A stretch of 64,000 bases of DNA, from assembly GCA_965285935.1 (NCBI GenBank), contig OZ260664.1:23932001-23996000 (forward strand). The letters run 5' to 3'. Position numbers and translations under genes: made by a program. The stretch comes from Ophelia neglecta (Eukaryota). Within the stretch, counting starts at the first letter, position 1. Every line of letters begins with the position of its first letter. Below the pieces are notes generated by a model. That model was given only the letters and a program-made list of their open reading frames with translations, did no database searches and was not told the DNA's origin. Shown piece by piece: positions 7,101-53,230 of the stretch.

Positions 7101-7285
7101 AACACCAATTATTCATGAACGACATGTCCTCAGAAAAACAATTTGATGACTATTATATTATATGAGTCCACAGTATGTAAACAAAAATAGACAGTACAAT
7201 AAACAATAAACTATACCCAACTTAAGACACTAAATGACCCACATGGTGTCTATGTGTCGTTAAGCCCCAAAAATCCAAATCCAAA

Positions 7286-7730
7286 TCCTTGTCAAAACAC
7301 CAGATGCTCCTTAAGGTCGAGATGCTGAATACAACAAGATTGCAACAAGACTACCATGAATATACTACTGGGTGGTCTTGGTTTGCCGGCACGACACCAC
7401 AGGCCCCCCTGGCAGACGAGGGTTGCCCAGGGCCGTCCCTGAGGTCTCTCCGTTCTTTTTATATGTACATCTATTGGCAGAAGGGGGGGGGGGGGGGGCG
7501 GGCGGTGAGCCACGGCGGGATCTAGAGAGCTAGAGAGTAGTAGGCTCACTACCCCCACTTTCCTTGTCAAAACACCAGACGACCCTTAAGGTCGAGATGC
7601 TGAATGCAACAAGATTGCAACAAAGACTACCATTGATATACTACTGGGTGGTCTTGGTTTGCCGGCACGACACCACAGCCCCCCTCGCGGCGGGCTCTAG
7701 AGAGCTATAGAGTAGTATGCTCACTACCCC
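7286..7730. repeat. Direct tandem duplication, period 275 bp (second copy internally deleted)
   Basis: tccttgtcaaaacaccaga...gccggcacgacaccacag starts at 7286 and 7561; both copies end in ctagagagcta..agtagta.gctcactacccc. Confidence 0.9.
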
Positions 7731-20091: not shown

Positions 20092-20344
20092 CTGAAAACG
20101 GCGTTAATATCATATAAAAATGCATGTATGCTAATGTTCGCAAATCTTATAAATTATCTATAAAGGAAAAGAACCCTAAAATAGTTATTATATTTTGTCG
20201 AAAACACTTTTTCTATCAAATATTCGAAAGTATAGATGATATTGGCTTCAAGTTTTGTGTCATGATTCATGTGATAACTATATACAATCTGTGTAATAAG
20301 TTAACTAGTTAACTTTATTAATGACCTGAAAACAAATTAGTTAA

Positions 20345-20680
20345 GGGAGCGTTCATTATTTATGGCCGGGGGGGGGGGGGTAAATTTTTGAAATGAGTAC
20401 GTAAAAAAAAATTGCCCCCCCCCCTGGAAATAGGTGGGAAAAAAATTGCCCCCCCCCCAGACAGAATTTGTCTAAGTATGATCAGTTTCACTACACACTT
20501 TTGTACAATATATATTTCAAAAAAAAATTGCGCACCCTGTGAATAGACTAAAAAAAAACTGTCCCCCCCATGGAAATGGGTTGAAAAAAAACTGTCCCCC
20601 CCCATGGAAATGGGTTGAAAAAAAACTGTCCCCCCCAAATTTACCACCCCCCCCCCCGGCCATAAATAATGAACGCTCCC
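20345..20680. mobile_element. PIF/Harbinger (Tourist-like) MITE, TAA TSD
   Basis: TIR GGGAGCGTTCATTATTTATGGCCGGGGG / CCCCCGGCCATAAATAATGAACGCTCCC; TAA at 20342-44 and 20681-83; internal aaaaaactgtccccccc repeats. Confidence 0.88.
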
Positions 20681-20823
20681 TAAGTTTGTTTTGCATTATT
20701 ATTGAGGTCATATGAAACCAACTTTAAGAATGACCTGCATTATTGAGGACATATAGAACCCACTACAATCTGTGTAATAAGTTAACTAGTACTGTGTAAT
20801 AAGTTAACTAGTTAACTTTATTA

Positions 20824-24834: not shown

Positions 24835-26275
24835 GGTATAGGGACAACTGGCCTACGGGTCAACTGGCCTACGGGACAACTGTCCATCAGGGTGAGACAA
24901 CTGGCCATCAGGGTGGGACAACTGGCCATGAGGGTGGGACAACTGGCCATGAGGGTGGGACAACTGGCCATCCACTGCATCAAGAAGTCAAAGCAACCCC
25001 TATCTATACATGTAGAGCTATATAGTCAGTTTATAGTGGGGGATTCCACTGTGCCATGTAATGGCCATCCAACACTCCACTGGATTTACACTGGGGCGTA
25101 TAAATAAAACAGCAATAAATATATCCAAGGGGGAGGGTACTTCCTATCTTGGTCATGGTGGGTATGCTGCAAACTAAGACCCCATTTTTGACATGTCAAA
25201 AATTTCCTAGCCCCCCTTTTTACCGTTACTCCCTCAAGACCCCTTTTTGTAACATTTTCTATGTGAAATGTATACCCCTGTGATGCTTTGAAGACACTGC
25301 ATGCACTGTATTTATCCTAGAACACTTCTACCCCCCACCCTTTTTATTAAAATATTTTAGACCCCCTTGTGGATGTGACATCTAGTAAAATTTTCAATAC
25401 CCCCAAATATTAATTAAATTAAGTTATATTATTTTTTTGCCAATTGATGAAGTAGGCCTACCCAATGTACTTGGACATGAAATATATCAAAGAAGATCGT
25501 AAGATGCAAATTGTTTTGTGAGGAATATGTGTGACCATGGCAGTCATTGTTCAGTATCTGTCAGTTACTAGGTCACTGGTGTGTGGGTGTTAAATGTTTT
25601 ATGAAAAATCAGTGGCAATATATTTATTTGTAATATTATTCATCTGTTCATCCTTGGTGATTCCGGTTCCGGTTGTAGATGTAACTCCGGCGGGGAAGAG
25701 CTCTGAAAGATGGCTGCCGTAAGGGAATGATGCGCCCTCTGTTGGTAGTAAGCATTATCATGATGATTATGTCAGATCTAGCGCTTGCTGTTATTATTAA
25801 TACCGTTCTGCGATGGCCAGTTGTCCTGCCCCGAGGCTTAGCCAATAGGCACTGGAATCACGGGTCCGAACTCTGGGCCTCAATTGCAATTGCCGCCCGG
25901 GAATTGCGGCGTGTTCAGTGGCCAGTGACCCGCCTCCGCGCGCGATGGCCACTTGTACCGCCCCCAGGTGTAGGCCACTAGCCACTGGGAACTGGGTGCG
26001 CCCGATCTCTGGGCCACGATTGCAATTGCGCTAGGGAATTACCGTGTGCGCGATGGCCAGTTGTCCCGCCCCCAGGCGTAGGCCACTATGCACTGGAAGC
26101 ACCCGATACCTGGGCCACGATTGCAATTGCGCTCGGGAATTACGATGTGTGCGATGGCCAGTTGATCCGCCGGCGATGGCCACTTGACCCGCCCCCAGGC
26201 GTAGGCCAGTTGACTCACCCGATGACCAGTTGACCCCAATGGCCAGTTGACCCGTAGGCCAGTTGTCCCTAATTC
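24835..26275. mobile_element. 1441-bp non-autonomous Mutator-like (MULE) element with tandemly repeated TIRs and 9-bp TSD TCGGAAATG
   Basis: Ends GGTATAGGGACAACTGGCCTACGGGTCAACTGGCC / GGCCAGTTGACCCGTAGGCCAGTTGTCCCTAATTC; TSD at 24826-24834 and 26276-26284; CAACTGGCC arrays at both ends; nested poly-G MITE fragment from ~25126. Confidence 0.9.
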
Positions 26276-40859: not shown

Positions 40860-41282
40860 AAAACGGGGGCACTTAAAAAATGGGGGGGGGGGCATCAAAT
40901 GTTTTGGCCCACCCACTTTTTAATGATGACCCTCTTACTTTTTCCCCTCTCAAAATGGTCACAGTGTAATGCAGCAGTGGTTAGGAGCGTCTGTCCTCAG
41001 TTGGCTAGACCATCATCAAACAGTTACCTGTAGGCAGGTTATTTACAAACCAATACACACCCGATAATTGAATTTATTCAATGTTTTTTTGGCACGTAAA
41101 GATCAATGTACAGTGGCATGCCCCCCCCCCACTTTTTTAAGTCAGGGGGGCATGCCCCCGCCCCCCCTTCCCCGACTTAAAAAAGTGGGGGGCCATCATA
41201 TGTTTTGCCCCCCCCCCCCCACTTTTTATGCTGCTGATGTAAAGTTGGCCCCCTCACTTTGATTTTCCTTCCTACGCCTCTG
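40860..41282. mobile_element. hAT-like MITE fragments with poly-C/G internal repeats
   Basis: Repeated acttaaaaaagtgggggg..catca.atgttttg.ccc motif; terminal cctacgcctctg resembles hAT-MITE ends; left end and TSD not found. Confidence 0.4.
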
Positions 41283-41544: not shown

Positions 41545-42585
41545 TAGGGCTACGTTTGGGCACTGCTCAATTCACATTCCTAATGAGTGCCTGTGCGACG
41601 GGGACCTGGTACAAGCAGTATACCCAACATTAGAGGGTGATGTTTCCAAACAAATAATACTAACCCCCAAAAATGACACCATCTTGGCCATCAACAGAGA
41701 AATCCTCAAACAACTTCCAGGGAGCAAAAAAAAACCTGAGCATTGACTGTATTGTGTCCCACAACCCTGACGAGAACAATTTCCCAGTTGAATTCCTCAA
41801 CAGTCTCACTCCGTCAGGAATGCCAGAGCACAAAGTGATCCTGAAGAAGGGTGCATTGATAATGCTCCTTCGTAGCCTTGACATTAAAAATGGCTTTTGT
41901 AATGGGACCCGCCAGATTGTTCGTCACCTTCATGCCGACACAATTGGCACAGTGGTTGTGGCGAACACACAGGCAGGGAAGAGGATTCTCATTCCCCGCA
42001 TTAAACTCGCCCCATCAGATGTGAATTTGACTATCGTCCTAGAACGCATCCAATTCCCTGCTCGGATAGCCTATTTAATGACGATCAACAAGGCGCAAGG
42101 GTAAACATTCAAAGAAATAGGCATTTACTTTCCTGACCCTGTTTTCACACATGGACAACTATACATAGCCTTCTCACAGACAAAATCATTTCAACGCATT
42201 AAAGTAAAAATCGTGAACACCACAAAGCAGGGTTATGCATCAGACACCATGACAACAGTCACCAAAACTGTTGTGTATCCTGAAATTCTTCAATGAACTG
42301 CTCGAGAGGTGTTCGCTGGATGACTGGAATAAAACTTAAGACTACCTTTGCTATGTATGTTTCATTCAAATCTGTTTGCACTTTTATTGTTTTGTCTCTC
42401 CCAACATTGGCAATATATAGGCACTATCATTTATGATGGATTTTTTTTATACCAACTTACTTTTCTATTTTTTTGTCTCAACCCAGCATTATAATAGTAA
42501 CAAATAAAAACTGCCCTCTTCGAATAGACCACCATTCAATCCACTGCTGCCCTTTTCACCGTGGTTGCCCACGGGTCACTGCTAG
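41545..42585 (+). mobile_element. Helitron 3' fragment: decayed PIF1-family helicase C-terminus plus canonical 3' end
   Basis: ILTPKN...[frameshift]...FLNSLTPSGMPEHKVILKKG...MLLRSL...CNGTR...IPRI...RIQFP...MTINKAQG*TF...VFTHGQLYIAFS...VVYPEILQ* (stop 42294-96); hairpin CCGTGG-ttgc-CCACGG 42559-42574; CTAG 42582-85, then T. Confidence 0.93.
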
Positions 42586-42612: not shown

Positions 42613-43801
42613 TAACACTGCAGTTCACTTGAATCTGAGAAACTGCTTACATTGCTACTTATATCTTCTTCATTCACAGAATCACTGACTTTGTTTACTA
42701 TTTCTCTCTTGTACTTCTTTCAGTCTTTTATCATACATATTTTCTTTCTTTCTCTCTCTGACAGGCATATACATTTATAATTCCCAAGTCTGCCACATCG
42801 GAAATATTTTGATCAGTCTGCTTAGCAATCTTCAACTTTATCATGTTCCTTGCCACATTTTGAACACTCATATTTAGTCTTTCGCGAATTTTACCCATAC
42901 ATACCAGCCTTCTTCCCGACCATCTTCACTTTTGTAAAACTTACTGATTCGGTTTGATCATTTGGTGCTAATTTACTCATTTGTTGACGTGGCATCTCCC
43001 TGTTTTTTTTAAATTCGTTGACGGCTTGTGCCAATGTCAGCTCATTTTTACCGACCTTCCTGGCTCTGGCTCCACTGTCTACAATATACCAAAAACTAAC
43101 CAATCCCTGTTCAGCTCATCTGCTAGGTCTGTATACTCACATGACGATGTCAGCTTTCTATACCGCCCAACGTACTCATCTAGTTTCATTCTGTTCTTGG
43201 GCACTCGTGTTGAAAATATATCACTCATATATAATTTATATTCGTCTGGAAAAACTTTTCTAAAAAGTGTCAGGATTTTCCCTACATCTTGGCGTTCTTC
43301 TGCTTTCAACGGCAAGTGTTCCTAGATTTTGTATCAATTCCTTCCCAATACGGACAAAGTGTTGCTACACACACTTTGTCGGCCATCTTGTCGAGCTCGG
43401 CAGCGATTTCATAATTCATCCATTGACACTTAGAAATTGCCTATTAGACGCGACATCTCCCGCACAGCTCAACGACGCGCACATTGAAAAATCTGCCATA
43501 TACCCCTAGGTCCTTAATCACAACTCAAATGGCTGAAAAGCCCACTATTTTGCTGGGGTAACGAAGGGCATCATTCGATAGCCATATGAATAAACTGCCC
43601 GAAATATCAACTATCAATATCCAGAAAACAAATATTTGAGAGAAAATACATGATTTTATACCATAGTTTTACTACTACTACTGGACGTCCCATTCACTTA
43701 TAATGGGGCTTCCGGTTAATCGAGGAACCAGCACTTTTCTATGTGACGCGGGTACTGGGAACCCTCCTAAAGCCATTGTTATCACCAGGCTTCTGACACC
43801 A
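42613..43801 (-). mobile_element. Ty3/Gypsy (Mag-like) LTR retrotransposon 5' remnant: PBS and decayed gag
   Basis: Minus strand: LTR end ...ATAACA, then PBS TGGTGTCAGAAG (43801-43790). gag from ATG 43776: MALGGFPVPA...GDVASN...QWMNYEIAAELDK...VATL...DEYVGRYRKLTSSCEYTDLADELNRDWLVFGI...LTLAQAV, then zinc knuckles CSKCGKEH..C / RCGRLGNY..C, with stops and frameshifts. Confidence 0.9.
43480..43745. mobile_element. 266-bp non-autonomous Transib/RAG-like element, CACA...TGTG ends, 5-bp TSD ACGCG
   Basis: Left CACATTGAAAA, right (reverse complement) CACATAGAAAA; ACGCG at 43475-79 and 43746-50; removing it plus one TSD restores the gag reading frame. Confidence 0.8.
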
Positions 43802-44034
43802 TGTTATGAATATCAATTTTATTCTACTAATCTGGACGACAATTGTCTGAACACGTAGCTAACTTTATTACCGATAGCTCAAAAAGCGTGTACACTTCTA
43901 CTGCTGCGTTTGCTATCACATAGCACGTTCTAATAACCGAACCAGTCCGCGTCCGCTGGACAAGTCAGTTCACGCTGGCCAAACCCTAGTATCCGTTAAA
44001 AGAAGAGGGTATACGAACATTTCACAAACGTACA
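43802..44034 (-). mobile_element. Putative 5' LTR of the Gypsy remnant (outer boundary uncertain)
   Basis: Abuts the PBS with TG at 43802 (CA on the minus strand); minus-strand AATAAA near 43818 and 43864. Confidence 0.5.
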
Positions 44035-44749: not shown

Positions 44750-47700
44750 TTAGACAAGGGTGTTACATCCGGCGGCATCATTTGGAATATTTGGGTAAGA
44801 AAACACATTTCCGACATTTTGAACACTTCCGTTGATATTCCAACCGCCGTCCATAGGGCAGACCACCTGCTGACCGCCGCCATCACTGCGTCCTCGTCGT
44901 CTGCTTTTCTCAGGGGCATTATCGTCGATGTAGGGGTATGTTGGTAAGGGTCCCGGCGTGGTTGATCTGCTTGTATCAGATGGAAAAAGAGGCTCAGGGT
45001 TCGGAGAGAAGCTGGAAAAGCCATTGTTTTCTTGGAAAGAGCGGGCGGAAGTAGGGCTCGGCAATTCGAATTGTTCCTGGCTCATGTTCATCCCACTGCG
45101 ATTGAGTTTTCCTATCTCCGGTTTGCGGAAAACCATATAAGCCTCTCCCCGGTTGGCCTGAGCGAAGGTTTGGGACATATCCATGTTGACGGGCGCTGAT
45201 GACGGCATTTCGTAATGTGGCTGGCGTAAAAGAAAGTGTACTGCTTATTTCTTATTCCGTGCTTATAATAATTAAAAAATAGATGGCCAATGATGTTATT
45301 ACAAATGTTAAGGCTTTCAAAACTTTATATATATTTAGTACAAAGCTATACCTGATTTGCTCGATCTATGGTGTCCCACATGTCGGCAGAAACCTGCGGA
45401 GGCTGCGGACCTTGAATTTGAAAATAAAGTCATTCTTAAAGTAAAATGCCTCATTTCAGTCAGAAGAACTATTGTTAAAAACGGCATGTGTTTCCCACGA
45501 ACCGATACAGTAGTAAATTCATATAAGCAGGTAGGGAAATAAAATACTTATTTAGCATTATGCAGTGTTTTTAATTAGTGCATACTCTACGAGTTGTCAA
45601 AATTAAAATGAACCACAAAGAACTTAAATAAAAAAGATGAGATTGTAAAGTCCACCTACCATCAGCTTGGGTCTTTGCCTGTTGCTTGGCTCTGTATTTG
45701 GGCAGGCAAATCAAAAAGATAATTAGCAAGATTATGATCACCAAAATGATTATCACGCCGAACGCAATCCCAATTATCGCTCCAACACTGAGGGAAGACC
45801 CTGAAAGATAGATAGTGACATCAACATCATGATTTTTAAAAAGACAAGCAAAATTATTCGATTAAACGAGGAAGAAAATGTACTTGAATCATTCATTCAA
45901 ATGTATTCGACACCCGGTAAGCTTGTTGCCGATGCACTTGACGTAGTCCTGTGATATAAGGTTTGGCGGCAAACCAAAACACGTGGTCATGGAGTCGTCT
46001 GTCATTGGTCATTTATTACATAACCCATACTAATGCGTTTCTCTCTCAATTTTAAACCTGCATTAATATATGTATGATACAAATAATCAGAAGAAAATGT
46101 ATGTGGGCCTCTTGTCGCAATTCACTTACCCCCAGACGCAATATAAAACGACGGAGATGTCCAGGTGTTCGAGTACGCAATCACATTGGTGGCATAGGTC
46201 GGCTGATTTATGGACCCAGGCGAGGGCTGGTCGAAGTGGGTTTTCATTGAGACAGGCTTCGAATTGATGAGAGTCGATGCCGTCAATAACAGCTGGCTGC
46301 TGACGTAATCAGCTGTCGTCTGGTTATTAATGGTGTAGGTGACGCCACTAGGAAGAGCCCATGACATGATTGGCGCCCAGCTGCCAGTGTATCCAACATG
46401 ACAGTTAATCGTTATGGTTTCCTGAGGCGCGTATATCACACTTCCTCCGACAATATCACATGTCGGGGTTGAACCTATAAAAAGGCAGTATAATACTCAA
46501 TTATTAGTATAAGTAATACATATTTTAATGATGAAATATTAAAAGCAAAGATTCGTCTATTTTTTGTCACAGTAGTTAGTAAATTGACATAATGTAGTGC
46601 CATGCTTTGCATAGGTGTAATCACGATTTTACTTTTCAAACTGACTTCTTTGCATTTCTACTTTTGTGAATATAAACTACGGCTGTCCTTTATGTTGGTG
46701 AACATTTCAGTAACTTCAAAGCCGTGACAAAAGAAAGTGTTCTAACAAAAAATTATTATTAATCATCATATCAAATTCATACAATGTATAACGTATTATC
46801 GAAGGCTAACTGTGTGCTACATAACTTGCTCCGAGTAAGGTTATACTGTTGGTATAGTTGACTTCTCAAGGGCTAAAAATTATGCCACAAACTCTGTAAC
46901 AGACATGTCATTTATTTACTCAATTATACAGTAAAGTCGCCTGGTATAGAGTTCCCATCAAGCGCCTAGTGTCCTTTCTGAAACCCACTTATGATACTAC
47001 CAAGTATGTCTAGTAATCAAGAACTGATGTTAACAGCTTGCACTGATGGTCTTCTGAAGTCCGTACAGGCGGCCATCTTGGATTTGGACTCGCCGACCCG
47101 AAAAATTTGATTCAATCAATTTCTATATAACTTTTGACATATAATAGATATTTTCATGATTAAAGTGTCTATTTATACGTAAATTTCTTGTCTTGATTGG
47201 TAATAATGGAATGTCCATCAAAATATCATATTTTGGCAGTCTCATCAGGTAAAGATGATAAATAAATGCAACCAAAATTCACTTGCTCCCTGACCAAAAA
47301 TGCCGGAAATCAAATAAAGTAAACAAGAGGATACCCGCCACATCAATTAGAATCGAGAATCCAAAATTGTCGATTGAATTGGACCAATCACAAGGAAATA
47401 CTAACCAGCATGCAACTTTGGTTCGCTAATCAAATAGTTACGCATATACAGTGAAACCTGTGAATTAAGACCACCAAAGGAAACGGAAAATACTGGTCTG
47501 ATTTCAGAGGTGGTCTGTTTAGACAGGTTATTAAACATTGAAAGTATACATCACGGTCCTCATGTAAGTGGTCTGAATTTACAGGTGGTCTGATTATAGA
47601 GATGGTCTTTAAAGCAGGTTTCACTGTATTCACTTATTTTAATGCTAACATGCATTTTGATGCTGATAAGCATTTGGCGTGAAATGGGTCGCCGTGCTTA

Positions 47701-49077
47701 TTTTTTCATTATTTTAATAGAGAAGCAATCGGCGTCATGTCGGTCCTCTATATATAGACAGCATAATAATAGATAGATGTTGGTTTTTATAATATAATAC
47801 CAATAGAAAACACGGGGAACGTTTTCAAAACACTGTCTTATTTTGATATTGCACAAAGTTGCCTAGCTATAAATAAAATACAGAAATAAGATGAATTGAA
47901 GGCAAAAAAATATAAAGAGAGTTTGCACTTAGACGTTCGTAACTTAAAAGTACGAGATTAGCAGAAATGAGGTTCATTCGAAATAAAACAAACAGGTACT
48001 CCAAAATGGCGACAGACTTTACCCTATGAAGGCACTTAGCGGATCCAAGCTAATTCAAGTAGGTTTAGATTGGTCGAAATACATTTAATGTATAGATCGA
48101 AATCGGTCCACAATATTAAAAGCCAGTAAAACTTATACTGTTCTGCACAGGCGTTTATATATAATTATGTATATGTATATATATGTATATATTTTATGTA
48201 TATATGGTGCACACATACAGTGATACAATGCAGGATATGGGGTCAGGGGGACACACGGGTGTAATTTGTAGCGTTAATTTTTCACATACTGAGGCAGTTC
48301 TTAAAATAACACCCTGCATAAAGTTTGTATAATGAATTTCTTTTCATAGCGAAAAGCTAAAGATATATTACTGGTAACAATATATTACTACTAACGGGCA
48401 ATTTATATTCTTATCTATAAACATTTATATATTGGAACAATCAATCTTATCTTTATTCTAAACCTGTGACTTTATTCAAACCAGGAAATCTGCAAGGCCA
48501 TCTAAGAAATTAATTTATCACTGTACTTTCTTTGGCCCCTAAATTTGTAGTGTATCATATTATATTTTTCACTTACTTAGAACTACCACTTGGGAGTAGG
48601 CCACGTTTTGATTGTCAGAGCACTGATATGATCCCACCAACTGGCTGCAATTAGACGCTTTACATTTGAGATCATAATCTCCCGATTGGCCCGTTTCTAT
48701 TGTAAAAAAGTCGGTGTAGTTGGGATAAACATATGCCCCATTCGAGATCTCATTCCCGTCCGACGTTTTCCACAGCACCGTGATATCTGACCCACAGTCT
48801 ATTAAAAATGTATTGACTCCAGCCACATTTTTGGGTAACGTAGTCAATCCAGTTGACACTGAATTAAAGTAAACAAATTATTATTAAAATTCATTCATTA
48901 AACATAAATATAGTTCTGCGCATTGTATTCCTGCATGATTGCGACTTTATCTTTAAAGGAATGTGCTTATCTTCATTTCTTCTAAACAATTCACGATTAA
49001 TTAGGTTCTGGTTTAAATGAAAACAATAGAAATAACCTACCGGGAATGAGAAACAGCACCAGAATATACTTCTCCAT
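44750..49077 (-). CDS. Type I transmembrane protein with signal peptide, two Ig-like domains, TM helix and long cytoplasmic tail, ~444 aa, 6 exons
   Basis: Exons 49077-49041, 48858-48577, 46474-46130, 45800-45660, 45410-45352, 45220-44750 (1335 nt; phase-1 introns bound the Ig domains). Signal MEKYILVLFLIPVSTG; Ig1 C..W..YDL..GSYQC; Ig2 CHVGYTGSWAPIMSW; TM GAIIGIAFGVIIILVIIILLIIFLICL; ends NTLV*. Confidence 0.88.
47449..47626. mobile_element. 178-bp Tc1/mariner (pogo/Tigger-like) MITE, TA TSD, intronic
   Basis: TA|CAGTGAAACCTG...CAGGTTTCACTG|TA; internal ggtggtct repeats. Confidence 0.9.
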
Positions 49078-50091
49078 CTTTCAAGTATCACATATTTGTA
49101 ATAGAGATGTGATATTTCTTAATTGTAAGTATATTACCGGGGAAAATACGTGGCACAAATAAAATGGCCTTTAAGATATGAGAGCATTGATATCCGGTGA
49201 GGTAATATTGTGTAGGATCGAAGTCCTTCCTTTGCGTCTTCACGAAGTACTTAAAACCACATGAATAGGCATGTGAGGTGATTGCAAACGTCTTGTCTTG
49301 ATTGGTTCGAGCAGAGTACACTTTGAGTAGTCCACTCCTTTGTACACACTGCTTAATGATGATAGGAAACAATATGACAGCATACCACTTCACCCACGAT
49401 ACGAAGTGCAAGCAAACTTAAAAATAATCCCAAGCATTTTGATTGAGCATGCATAAGCATTTAACAAATAATATTATGTGTAAATTCCTGATATGAATAA
49501 GGACCAGGGACCATAGATGGAGGACAGACAATATAATGATATATTCTATGGGGGGGGGGGGGGGGGGGGTATACTGTATTAGGTTTGGGGATAAATTATA
49601 GACAGTCAGTGAAACAATAGGCCTAAATTCTTTTGGCAAAGAGCGCCATACCTGTAATAACTAGGCTTTTTGTAGTCCTATTTATTGTTATGTGTTTTGA
49701 CAGGCACATGGTAGATATATGTCCTGGGATACAGAAACATACTATTTTTTGTTAACAACATAACACATACATTATTATTCTAAACAAAATGCGTAGCCCC
49801 CGCCGCAAGTACCCCCCCCCCACCCCCACCCCCATCCCCAACCAACCTTCACTCGCACACACCCCCCCCCCCCCACACACACCCTCAAGCACGCATTCAC
49901 TTAACTACAATCATTGGCATTGTCTGACTTTAATATTATATCCATATTTGCAAAAGAGCAGGTCACATTAAAGGTCACATTTAAGTTCGTAATCAAATTC
50001 ATCCATTCCATAAAAAAGAAACAATTCAAAAAGATGCATCTGGTGTTATTTAAGTCCAAGTAATACATTTGGTACCAGCTGACCGTAGTAA

Positions 50092-50329
50092 GGGGCCGAC
50101 CATTTGATAATGTAGGGGAGGGGGGGGGGGGGGGATGAGATTTTTTTTTTCAAATCATTATTTTGTTTGCCTCCTCCAAAACAATCTTTTTTTCCTCATA
50201 ATTCCCCTGCAAACATTTTATTTCTCAAGTAGTGTGACAAACTTTTTTTTTGGCCAGAGCTGGCCAACAAACTTTTTTTTCTACTTTTTTCTCACCCCCC
50301 CCCCCTACATTATCAAATGGTTGGCCCCC
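50092..50329. mobile_element. PIF/Harbinger-type MITE, TAA TSD
   Basis: GGGGCCGACCATTTGATAATGTAGGGG / CCCCTACATTATCAAATGGTTGGCCCC flanked by TAA at 50089-91 and 50330-32. Confidence 0.85.
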
Positions 50330-52030
50330 TAACTGCTGTGTTTTACCACTTTTGGTAATTTGAATTGCTTCTATATTTATCAATAGTGGTAGCTATGATA
50401 TTAAATATGAGTGAATCAATGTGGTTTCTGGCCGTCAGGATTTTAAGAATTACCATATCATTAACCTTGAAATTAATTTGTCACCGTATATTTAACAATC
50501 TTCAAAAATTCTCATCAATATAACTTCTACGGAGGTAAACAATAAGTTGCCCATGAGATTTTCGGGAGCAAGGATTTAAAAAAGGCAATGACCTAGTCCG
50601 TGAGATAATTATAAGATCAGATGCGCAGTTGATTGTTATTTATGATAACATACCATGCAGCCTTGATGCTTCATATTCTTTGGTTCACGAGGTTTTCTAT
50701 TATGATGATTCCATTAATGCAATAAAAATACCTATGTTTGCCTAATCTAATCAAAATATAGGCAGGGATGTTGATTTCACATTTTAAAGGTCAAATTGGA
50801 GAAAAAGAAAATGTATGGGGTCTCAGTATTCAGCGCAGTAGCGCTGCGAAGCATGATTGGGCGCTGCTGCTAACGCTCTGGCTCCGCACTGGCAGCGGGT
50901 TGTCACGTGGGTCAGGGTAGGGTTATTTTATTGTCTGTCGCAGCGCAGCGCCAAACATCGCAGCGCAGACTGCAGGGTCACTAAAACTACCAGAATAATA
51001 GATTTAAGCTTGTACATGGGGTTTTCGCGTGCGAGGATGGCAAAAATGAATGGGAAAGTTTGATTTTAGAAATCATTTTATTGTCAATTTAGCAAATCAC
51101 CTTAACAACCTTGCCAACAATTTTCATACCCTTTCTAAACCATTAAATATTTGCCTGTAAAAAATTAAGTCCAACTAATTGGTTTTTGCCATTCTTTTCT
51201 GTTAACTTAACAAAAATTGTATGTAATCGTTAAAATTGTTGTAACATTCAAAACTTTTTTCAATTTATTCGTAAAGCTGTAATTCTAAATTTAATGCTTT
51301 TTAGTTATGCTAAGATATAGGCTGATCAAAATACCGAATAAAAACAAATTCAAATTGATTTAAGTGTAGAACTTAAACATTTTCTTCAGCCGGAACCTAA
51401 AAAAATCTTAAAATCAGAGTGAGTGTATTTGATATTATCCGAAATGCTAAATGACACAGTGGTTAAATTGTATATAGTTTAAATATGAGGGTGGAACGGT
51501 ATATAATGTGATATACGAAATGGAATGTGGAAAACTTATACTCATCTATTAGCCTTATAAAATATGGTAATGGAATTTGAGAATACGTAAACTTGGCCTT
51601 AACTCATTTCGACAACTTTATGAATATTTCAAAATGTCAAACTGGGGTTAAAACGGTTATCTCCACCTGAGGTTGTTGCATAAAGCTCTTACATATTTAG
51701 ACTTTTATATATTTAACTATTATAAGTCTCAAACGTTTACCGGCATCCTGGTTTAAGTTTACAAAATGTCAGATGCAACCCGCACTTCTTGTCCTGAATA
51801 TGTACTTTTAGCATATTCCCCAGATTGCATATCACATCCTTTTCCAAGTAATTTTGGCTCTAATCAATAACCTTACATCGATATTCCTAGTCATTAATGA
51901 TATTATTGTAAAGCAGCATATGTTGATTATTGTGTCTCTTCCGCACCTGTCACATCCGTTAATATTTATACAATGATTTTATTCAGAATTTGAAAACTTC
52001 AGGTCAATTTGTCCAGGTAACAAGTTTGTA

Positions 52031-52208
52031 CAGTGAAACCAGTGAATTAAAACCACCAAAGGGACTTGAAAATACTGGTCTGATTTCAGAGGTGGTCTGT
52101 TTAGACAGGTTATTTAACATTAAAAGTATACAGAACATGCCTCATATTAGTGGTCCGAATTGACAGGTGGTCTGATTATGGAGGTGTTTTTTAAGGCAGG
52201 TTTTACTG
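52031..52208. mobile_element. Second 178-bp copy of the pogo/Tigger-like MITE, TA TSD
   Basis: Colinear with 47449-47626; TA|CAGTGAAACC...GGTTTTTACTG|TA. Confidence 0.9.
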
Positions 52209-53230
52209 TAATTGCTGTATGATCTTGTGGAAGAGATTACGAAGTCAAATGTTTCTCTTGCGTTTGTTTTTACGCCTTATCAGCTTCAATCTGGAGTCAA
52301 AGGGCAAGTTGAGTTGAACTAGTTGACGCAACGCAATAATAAAGCATACAAGTACACACTGAAAGGTGACAAATCCTATATACAAAATCTATTGATAGAA
52401 TTGTGGGACATTCAGAAACGGCCGTTGAGGAAAGGCGTGGGTTGGTAAGGCGGAAAGTTATTTATCATTGATTCATCGAATAACTTTACAGTCAGTCATC
52501 CGTAAGTCGTCCGTGACATGTGTCAGCGGGTTGGCAGCGGATGGGCTCATCCGCAGGTTTTAGCCGTAACATCCGTAAGTCATACGTAACATACGCAACT
52601 AAGCCGTATCGTCCGCAGATATAGGTAACTTTTGCTCAAATTTCCGTTACTTGAGGTTAAAGTTACGCATTTTCATTATCCAAATATACGCAGGTATCCG
52701 AAGGTCCGTAACATGGCCGTGTGACTGTAGCACTACATTATTAACATTGCGACATGCAGCTTTACGGAAGACGGAAGAAAAGACCCAAGCACCGGCATTG
52801 CACTTGTGTTTGGAATTGTCAGGGTCAAGCAAGTACATGTAGAAATTATCTAGAAGATTCCAACTCCGCAAACCAATTTGCCATTTTCTTTCTGATTGAG
52901 ACATGGCCTGATGTTACACAAAATTAGATCCCACATTTCAACATAATCTGTTAGATACTGATATTATCCGTACTAAAACTAGAGAAAAGTAGAGAGTAGA
53001 GTTTTAATTGTGGATTTAGGAAGAACCGTTTATTTAAAATCCGAATATCTTTTTAAGCATTAGTCTTTATTTGCTGTAAAACTAAGCTTTAAATATTTAT
53101 ACTATCCAAGAATTTGTAAGTGTAAGCTATTATAAAAGATGTATAATTATTTTCTTAGTGAAAGATATGATATGATTATCAGATCAGTTGAAAGGTAAAA
53201 GTAAAGGTGTGAGAGCTTCCATTGTCTAAA

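Follow-up and report, generated by a model that had tools for sequence, protein, structure and literature searches.

A 266-bp segment interrupts a decayed retroelement in the window, by which we mean the whole 64,000-nucleotide stretch of DNA analysed here, and raises the question of what kind of element it is and which transposase put it there. The original prediction described an insert with CAC ends and a perfect 5-bp target-site duplication (TSD), ACGCG. We confirm that 43480..43745 is a non-autonomous DNA transposon with these features, a RAGL-type mini-transposon (MITE) delimited by its family members, ends and TSDs; ACGCG is read from the sequence, with no strand, at 43475..43479 on its left and at 43746..43750 on its right. 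The terminal letters of this copy are CACATTGAAAA and, on the reverse strand, CACATAGAAAA, alike at 10 of 11 positions. Past base 13 the two ends are scarcely alike, in keeping with the subterminal asymmetry that had been noted. The left end (43480..43511, plus strand) opens with the heptamer-like CACATTG and A-rich, TR2-like bases 8-11, and its subterminal part resembles the 3' TIR of family X, one of the RAG1L-RAG2L families described below. The right end (43714..43745, minus strand) has CACATAG, A-rich bases 8-11 and, at bases 20-28, TCCTCGATT, which it has in common with the 5' TIR of family X. This likeness makes the right end the 5' (RAG1L-side) end, and the MITE is therefore placed on the minus strand. 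No other CAC..GTG pair in the whole window, at lengths of 100-3000 bp, combines an exact 5-bp duplication with one mismatch or none in the 11 terminal bases, so the ends of the insert are not due to chance.

The insert lies in an LTR-retroelement remnant on the minus strand. The start and leader of this remnant, upstream of the insert, occupy 43746..43950 and are 75-78% identical to two related copies, L133 and L134; the gag-pol-like portion downstream of the insert occupies 42626..43479 and is 80% identical to them. Both related copies lack the insert and represent the empty site, with the five target bases, ACGCG, present once. It had been claimed that removal of the insert restores a gag gene in frame. 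The residues named are indeed found on each side when the flanks are translated separately, but downstream of the insert several additional stops and frame changes interrupt the coding sequence, and the remnant that received the MITE is presumably dead by now. In L133, the matching site is in the opening part of a 673-aa frame; this frame has a reverse transcriptase match (RVT_1, E 9e-21), consistent with a gag-pol gene. Of the Ty3/Gypsy gene order gag-protease-RT-RNaseH-integrase, the RT alone was matched, in one related copy.

The window copy, which diverges 3.4% from the family majority, has many relatives. The genome holds 436 candidates, and the best 40 of the 436 that were scored, the window copy aside, are 92-95% identical. 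Searches with the exact ends returned 106 left 25-mers and 73 right 32-mers, and none with reversed-pattern controls; the gene-less copies number at least a hundred. In the sampled loci the termini start with CAC and are heptamer-like. Pairwise identity between copies, at the 66 of 81 loci that were long enough, has a mean of 93% and a maximum of 97.7%. When TSD lengths were tabulated over other copies, the 2-4 bp pattern named as a refutation found no support: an exact 5-bp TSD is present in 16 of 30 loci (two share one site) and a TSD with one mismatch in 7 more, with exact duplications of 2 bp in one locus, of 3 bp in two, and of 4 bp or 6-9 bp in none. Shuffled pairing of the flanks of these loci gave a mean of 0.1 and a maximum of 2 exact 5-bp matches. 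In a second sample of 40 loci, taken from the exact-end lists, the TSD is exact in 18, has one mismatch in 4 and 2-5 mismatches in 5, and both ends were not recoverable in 13. The GC content of family TSDs is 0.51 against 0.41 in the flanks (15 sites), so the description "GC-rich" suits ACGCG itself and is just mildly true of the family. For PflRAGL-A, the available part of PMC10629977 reports a TSD GC content of 82.5%.

The longer elements with convergent RAG1L and RAG2L genes that had been suggested as relatives are present in the genome. A genome search with the RAG1 family model gave 13 matching places, about 10 loci, and three families could be bounded, each with the layout TSD-TIR-RAG1L><RAG2L-TIR-TSD and exact 5-bp TSDs. 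Family X is represented at C8:1031701-1041544 (9,844 bp), Y at C8:1111026-1118584 (7,559 bp) and C2:83631146-83638601 (7,456 bp), and Z at C1:15617964-15627567 (9,604 bp) and C12:73088666-73100941 (12,276 bp). A fourth family, W, is a decayed relative of Y whose ends were not found. The best solved match of RAG1L is amphioxus RAG1L (6b40_A, E 3e-102), with vertebrate RAG1 at 6e-49 and moth Transib at 1e-6. The gene convergent to it is a kelch and PHD gene with Pfam kelch, RAG2 and PHD matches, and amphioxus RAG2L is its best solved match (6b40_M, E 4e-18). The RAG1L model of the C8 copy of Y is open over 953 aa with two GT-AG introns. It has no GRPR/K; its acidic catalytic motifs, zinc ligands, RING, Met at the R848 position and CCGHC tail are motifs found in Z as well (R848/M and CCGHC follow PMC10629977, in its available part). 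According to the same source, the Met, the CCGHC tail and the lack of GRPR/K are RAGL-B traits. Judged by sequence, X, Y and Z are RAGL-B (ProtoRAG) type transposons. In a quick IQ-TREE tree built from 41 rows, after removal of 3 short ones and with SH-aLRT as the sole support measure (only 85-92 at the deeper forks), X joins Z (99) and Y joins W (100). The two pairs branch apart from each other among RAG1L of molluscs, echinoderms and amphioxus, and both lie outside a group (99) of RAG1 and one Ptychodera protein.

Within-family identity is 92.5-95% for X, 93.5-94% for Z and 99.7% for Y. All X and Z copies examined carry stops or frame changes. The C8 copy of X has a stop, an insert that interrupts the RAG2L PHD and a D-to-Y change at the first catalytic Asp, a residue retained in the C12 copy. 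Over 7,455 bases, 17 substitutions separate the two Y copies, which lie between different TSDs. In the C8 copy, a stop just before the PHD removes it from RAG2L; in the C2 copy, RAG1L has a 103-bp deletion and the main exon of RAG2L is open. Both Y copies have GA instead of GT as the donor of RAG2L exon 2. Among the matching sequencing runs listed there is none of RNA. Deleted and undeleted forms of Y RAG1L are both present in contigs of three DNA runs, which come from one sample, possibly that behind the assembly itself, and are not independent. No joint across the whole Y element appeared among the matches listed for the DNA-run contigs, a result that says nothing on polymorphism.

Several further features accompany these families. 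X and Z have an ORF of 170-180 aa upstream of RAG1L on the same strand (L044:6388-6897 and L050:6013-6552; 30% identical, E 7e-8), which may be an N-terminal exon or a third gene, and Y has a 152-aa ORF in RAG2L intron 1 (L055:3718-4173, minus strand) that is open in both copies. None of these ORFs has a Pfam match, and that of Y also has no Atlas hit. Non-autonomous X derivatives of at least 3.6 kb with 5-bp TSDs are found at C5:15064400-15068013, C5:15187820-15191432 and C1:131.46-131.83 Mb, multiplied by local duplication. In the X copy at C12:73597436 and 73645446, the 3' part is inverted about 40 kb away, with a flank one mismatch from the TSD. RAG2L in the C8 copy of X holds a younger 244-bp MITE (element bases 7279-7522) whose TIR is long and whose TSD is apparently 9 bp; many copies of it, most 95-99% identical, lie at C1:17.71-17.75 Mb. 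RAG2L remnants whose fetched flanks gave no RAG1L match occur at C1:23915549, C1:21297409, C12:1500677, C12:72331476 and C5:73724353, among others. Finally, a 180-bp repeat at 47444-47628 and 52029-52210 of the window is also present within family Z (element bases 548-732).

The ends of X carry GCCATTTTG at spacers of 27 and 38 after the heptamer, and those of Z carry GCCATCTTG and GCCATTTTG at spacers of 29 and 38. A shared 9-mer at the ends arises in 38 of 2000 shuffles, and the 9-mers of X and Z match the published TR5, the distal, YY1-bound element of 9 bases that follows the heptamer at distances of 27 and 31 bases in lancelet ProtoRAG (PMC8289069, PMC7481187, in their available parts). 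We read the ends of X and Z as ProtoRAG-type bipartite TIRs with an asymmetric TR5 distance, which would make the lancelet TR5/YY1 element conserved in a protostome, with 27/38 spacing. At the ends of Y and of the MITE, no TR5 element is found.

We compared the ends of these families with those of the MITE. Around RAGL loci, 798,848 positions were scanned with the two MITE ends (family majority, 32 bases). The best match of the left end is the X 3' end and that of the right end the X 5' end, at 24/32 each. The likeness is specific to each end: over bases 14-32, the left end matches X 3' at 12/19 and the right end X 5' at 13/19, as opposed to 4 and 3 in the crossed pairings. Z, the sister of X, reaches 10/19 in the 5' pairing and otherwise 4-6, and Y reaches 1-7 of 19. 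In the eight pairings with X and Y ends, the two correct X pairings alone have gapped local scores (35 and 41) that beat 200/200 shuffles. The likeness to X stops near base 30, and beyond the ends the MITE interior matches none of X, Y, Z and the further RAG1L/RAG2L regions that were fetched. This result and the absence of TR5 show that the MITE did not arise by simple deletion from the X copies seen.

A direct parent was found neither among the fetched RAGL regions nor among longer MITE-ended elements. The latter (1.0-3.4 kb), for which the left and right end lists were crossed by eye (100 of the 106 left ends), look like MITEs with inserted DNA and were rejected as parents; two of them (3.4 and 1.2 kb) contain no RAG sequence. 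Pairs of left ends, facing or in tandem at distances of 7-13 kb, were likewise rejected, as duplicated MITEs with identical flanks. The end-specific likeness, together with the similar age of the MITE and X, points to X or a lost sister family as the partner, and we assign a probability of about 75% to the reading that an X-like RAG1L/RAG2L transposase spread the MITE.

Three other origins were weighed against this reading. CAC termini by themselves are not diagnostic of a superfamily, and the 11-base end motif of the MITE occurs three more times in the window, in each case with neither partner nor TSD, as might be said in favor of chance ends or of another CAC-ended superfamily such as CACTA/Chapaev. 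CACTA/Chapaev elements, however, have TSDs of 2-4 bp, lengths of which none occurs in more than 2 of 30 loci, whereas the TSD of the MITE is 5 bp, and the MITE has hundreds of copies; CACTA/Chapaev is already refuted by the TSD length table, and we consider this whole class of explanation scarcely credible. Conversely, the 5-bp TSDs across the family and the presence of convergent RAG1L/RAG2L elements with similar ends bear out the Transib/RAG-like identity first proposed, and the MITE almost certainly belongs to the Transib superfamily including RAGL. Within that superfamily, the partner could have been a single-gene Transib transposase without RAG2L, since lost or missed. CAC ends and 5-bp TSDs are also typical of Transib (PMC7204232, PMC4411706, in their available parts), the MITE has no parent among the elements found, and our searches, in which the best candidates were scored, are insensitive to distant Transib proteins. 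Nevertheless, genome searches with PF12940, X-RAG1L and P0273 returned RAGL-type loci only (P0273 is a distant RAG1/Transib-like protein whose best solved match is still RAG1L, and the three distant proteins tried as Transib queries all match RAG1L best), and a Transib partner, which we judge quite improbable, would leave the end-specific match to X unexplained. Because every RAG1/Transib-like match found lies at RAGL-type loci and the MITE ends pair end-specifically with X, a RAG1L-RAG2L partner is favored over Transib, as the asymmetric ends had suggested from the start.

That the partner was some RAGL transposase is therefore very probable, and family Y, or an older relative such as W, could also have supplied it. 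The MITE has core sequence in common with Y, which lacks TR5 as well and whose RAG1L model is open. Within the first 17 bases, the left MITE end matches Y 5' at 16/17 (X 3' at 14/17) and the right end matches Y 3' at 12/17, with the first 11 identical; for ProtoRAG cleavage only the first 16-17 bases are essential (PMC7204232, in its available part). On the other hand, there is no likeness to Y beyond base 17, and the Y copies are near-identical whereas no pair of the 66 MITE copies exceeds 97.7%, which rules out present-day Y as a recent mover of the sampled copies. We therefore regard Y or its older relatives as unlikely partners and retain X, or a lost sister family, as the probable source.

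The MITE is of a RAGL-type kind already known, and the mechanism itself is known. In ProtoRAG, RAG1L/RAG2L binding covers the heptamer and the A-rich TR2, cleavage takes place at CAC and insertion is staggered by 5 bases (PMC7204232, PMC8289069, PMC7481187, in their available parts). By analogy, the RAG1L-RAG2L transposase of X, or of the lost sister family, would bind the terminal 13-17 bases of the MITE, which comprise the heptamer and the A-rich TR2, with the CCGHC tail making the contact to TR2; it would then cut and insert in the same way. The MITE would have moved in trans and been cut and pasted to hundreds of sites. Divergence suggests that this burst occurred while X and Z were active and has since ended. 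In lancelet, YY1 suppresses ProtoRAG transposition (PMC8289069, PMC7481187, available parts), and the absence of the TR5/YY1 site may, speculatively, have helped the MITE multiply; Y also lacks TR5, yet only two copies of it were found. In a wider and more doubtful reading, this would be an annelid with a community of RAGL elements in which Y is still mobile, bipartite ends are ancient or recurrent, and a TR5-less MITE was released to hundreds of copies. Y would then depend on the open RAG1L of one copy and the open RAG2L main exon of the other, or on a kelch-only RAG2L beside the open RAG1L. The X spacers, 27 and 38, would differ by one helical turn, just as 12 and 23 do in the 12/23 rule, and bipartite, turn-asymmetric ends would then be older than the protostome-deuterostome split or have arisen more than once. 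The MITE would be a natural experiment in which loss of a YY1 site releases RAG-type transposition.

Among known systems, amphioxus ProtoRAG/RAGL-B (BbeRAG1L/2L, 6b40), as described in the available parts of PMC8289069 and PMC7481187, resembles X, Y and Z in its convergent RAG1L and kelch-PHD RAG2L, CAC-TIRs and 5-bp TSD. D/E/D/E motifs, the Met at the RAG1 R848 position and the CCGHC tail are shared as well. As in X and Z, TR5, GCCAT(C/T)TTG, is present at both ends, and the 27-base 5' spacer is the same in X; the 3' spacer is 31 in ProtoRAG and 38 here. The ProtoRAG heptamer is CACTATG, in contrast to CACATTG, CACGTTG, CACATAG or CACGAAC in this genome. Further differences are the missing TR5 of Y and the MITE and the extra ORF of X and Z. 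Protostome RAGL-B/D elements of oysters, pearl oyster and a nemertean (PMC7204232, available part) likewise have a 13-15 bp core TIR, A-rich bases 8-10 and a 5-bp TSD, with several families per genome, solo RAG2L remnants and non-autonomous copies, though the host here is a likely annelid. Their non-autonomous elements, in the accessible part of supplement 2, amount to 20 copies of 0.7-2.6 kb in 4 species, compared with 266 bp and more than 100 copies here. Ptychodera RAGL-A and the 12/23 RSS of vertebrate RAG1-RAG2 (PMC10629977, available part) also have a heptamer-like end and a 5-bp TSD, and the spacer asymmetry of 11 bases in X and 9 in Z compares with 10 in PflRAGL-A and 11 in the RSS. 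Unlike that system, however, the families here lack an AT-rich nonamer, and the RAG1L model of Y is devoid of GRPR/K. PHD comes shortly after kelch, with no acidic hinge in between (read from translations), and, in the quick tree, RAG1L is outside the group of RAG1 and the neighboring Ptychodera protein. Transib (HzTransib, PDB 6pqn) has the CAC ends, 5-bp TSD and catalytic core in common with these families, but it is a single gene and its match to RAG1L is far weaker (E 1e-6).

The host itself was placed by its genes. A ten-gene Hox cluster, lab to Post2, lies at C1:60.5-61.1 Mb, and its genes, which we take from their signatures to include Lox5-, Lox4-, Lox2- and Post2-types, indicate a lophotrochozoan. 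Erythrocruorin-linker matches are found at C9:13.86-13.88 Mb, and such linkers are not strictly confined to annelids. The best named match of Zfh1 is a polychaete at 211 bits, with the best mollusc at 172 and a nemertean at 165. A one-gene tree groups the host with the polychaete of the Zfh1 match at 96; the other named annelid is unplaced in it and arthropods fall oddly. Taken together, the linkers, the Zfh1 match and the tree make an annelid host likely, though not certain.

It is accepted that the V(D)J recombinase descends from RAGL transposons, and outside deuterostomes the number of complete elements known is small. RAGL transposons, together with a small number of non-autonomous copies, are on record from deuterostomes, bivalves, a nemertean, cnidarians and an alga (PMC7204232 among the sources, in its available part), and this genome would add a phylum, likely the annelids, to their hosts. 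The accessible text of a 2020 RAGL survey, with 25 annelid species in the data available to it, does not mention annelids; the readable part of the Tao 2022 supplement names none, and its figure S1 (173 species) may include some. Our literature search, with subscription journals outside its scope, found no report of annelid RAGL elements or of a high-copy RAGL MITE. The genome offers two deep RAG1L lineages side by side and several RAGL families, one of them young, and the more than 100 natural MITE insertion sites are material for studying the target choice of a RAG-type enzyme in the germ line. The low copy number of autonomous RAGL elements has been stressed (PMC4411706, available part), and the copy number of the MITE runs counter to this low-copy view.

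The window also contains features beyond the MITE and its host retroelement. A Pif1-type helicase fragment, probably of a Helitron, lies at 41664-42104, and other inverted-repeat elements are found at 20344-20681, 24839-26271, 40882-41218 and 50089-50331. Ig-like exons of a host gene lie at 46122-46496 and 48569-48877; a homolog search with an Ig-like exon of the window returned none.
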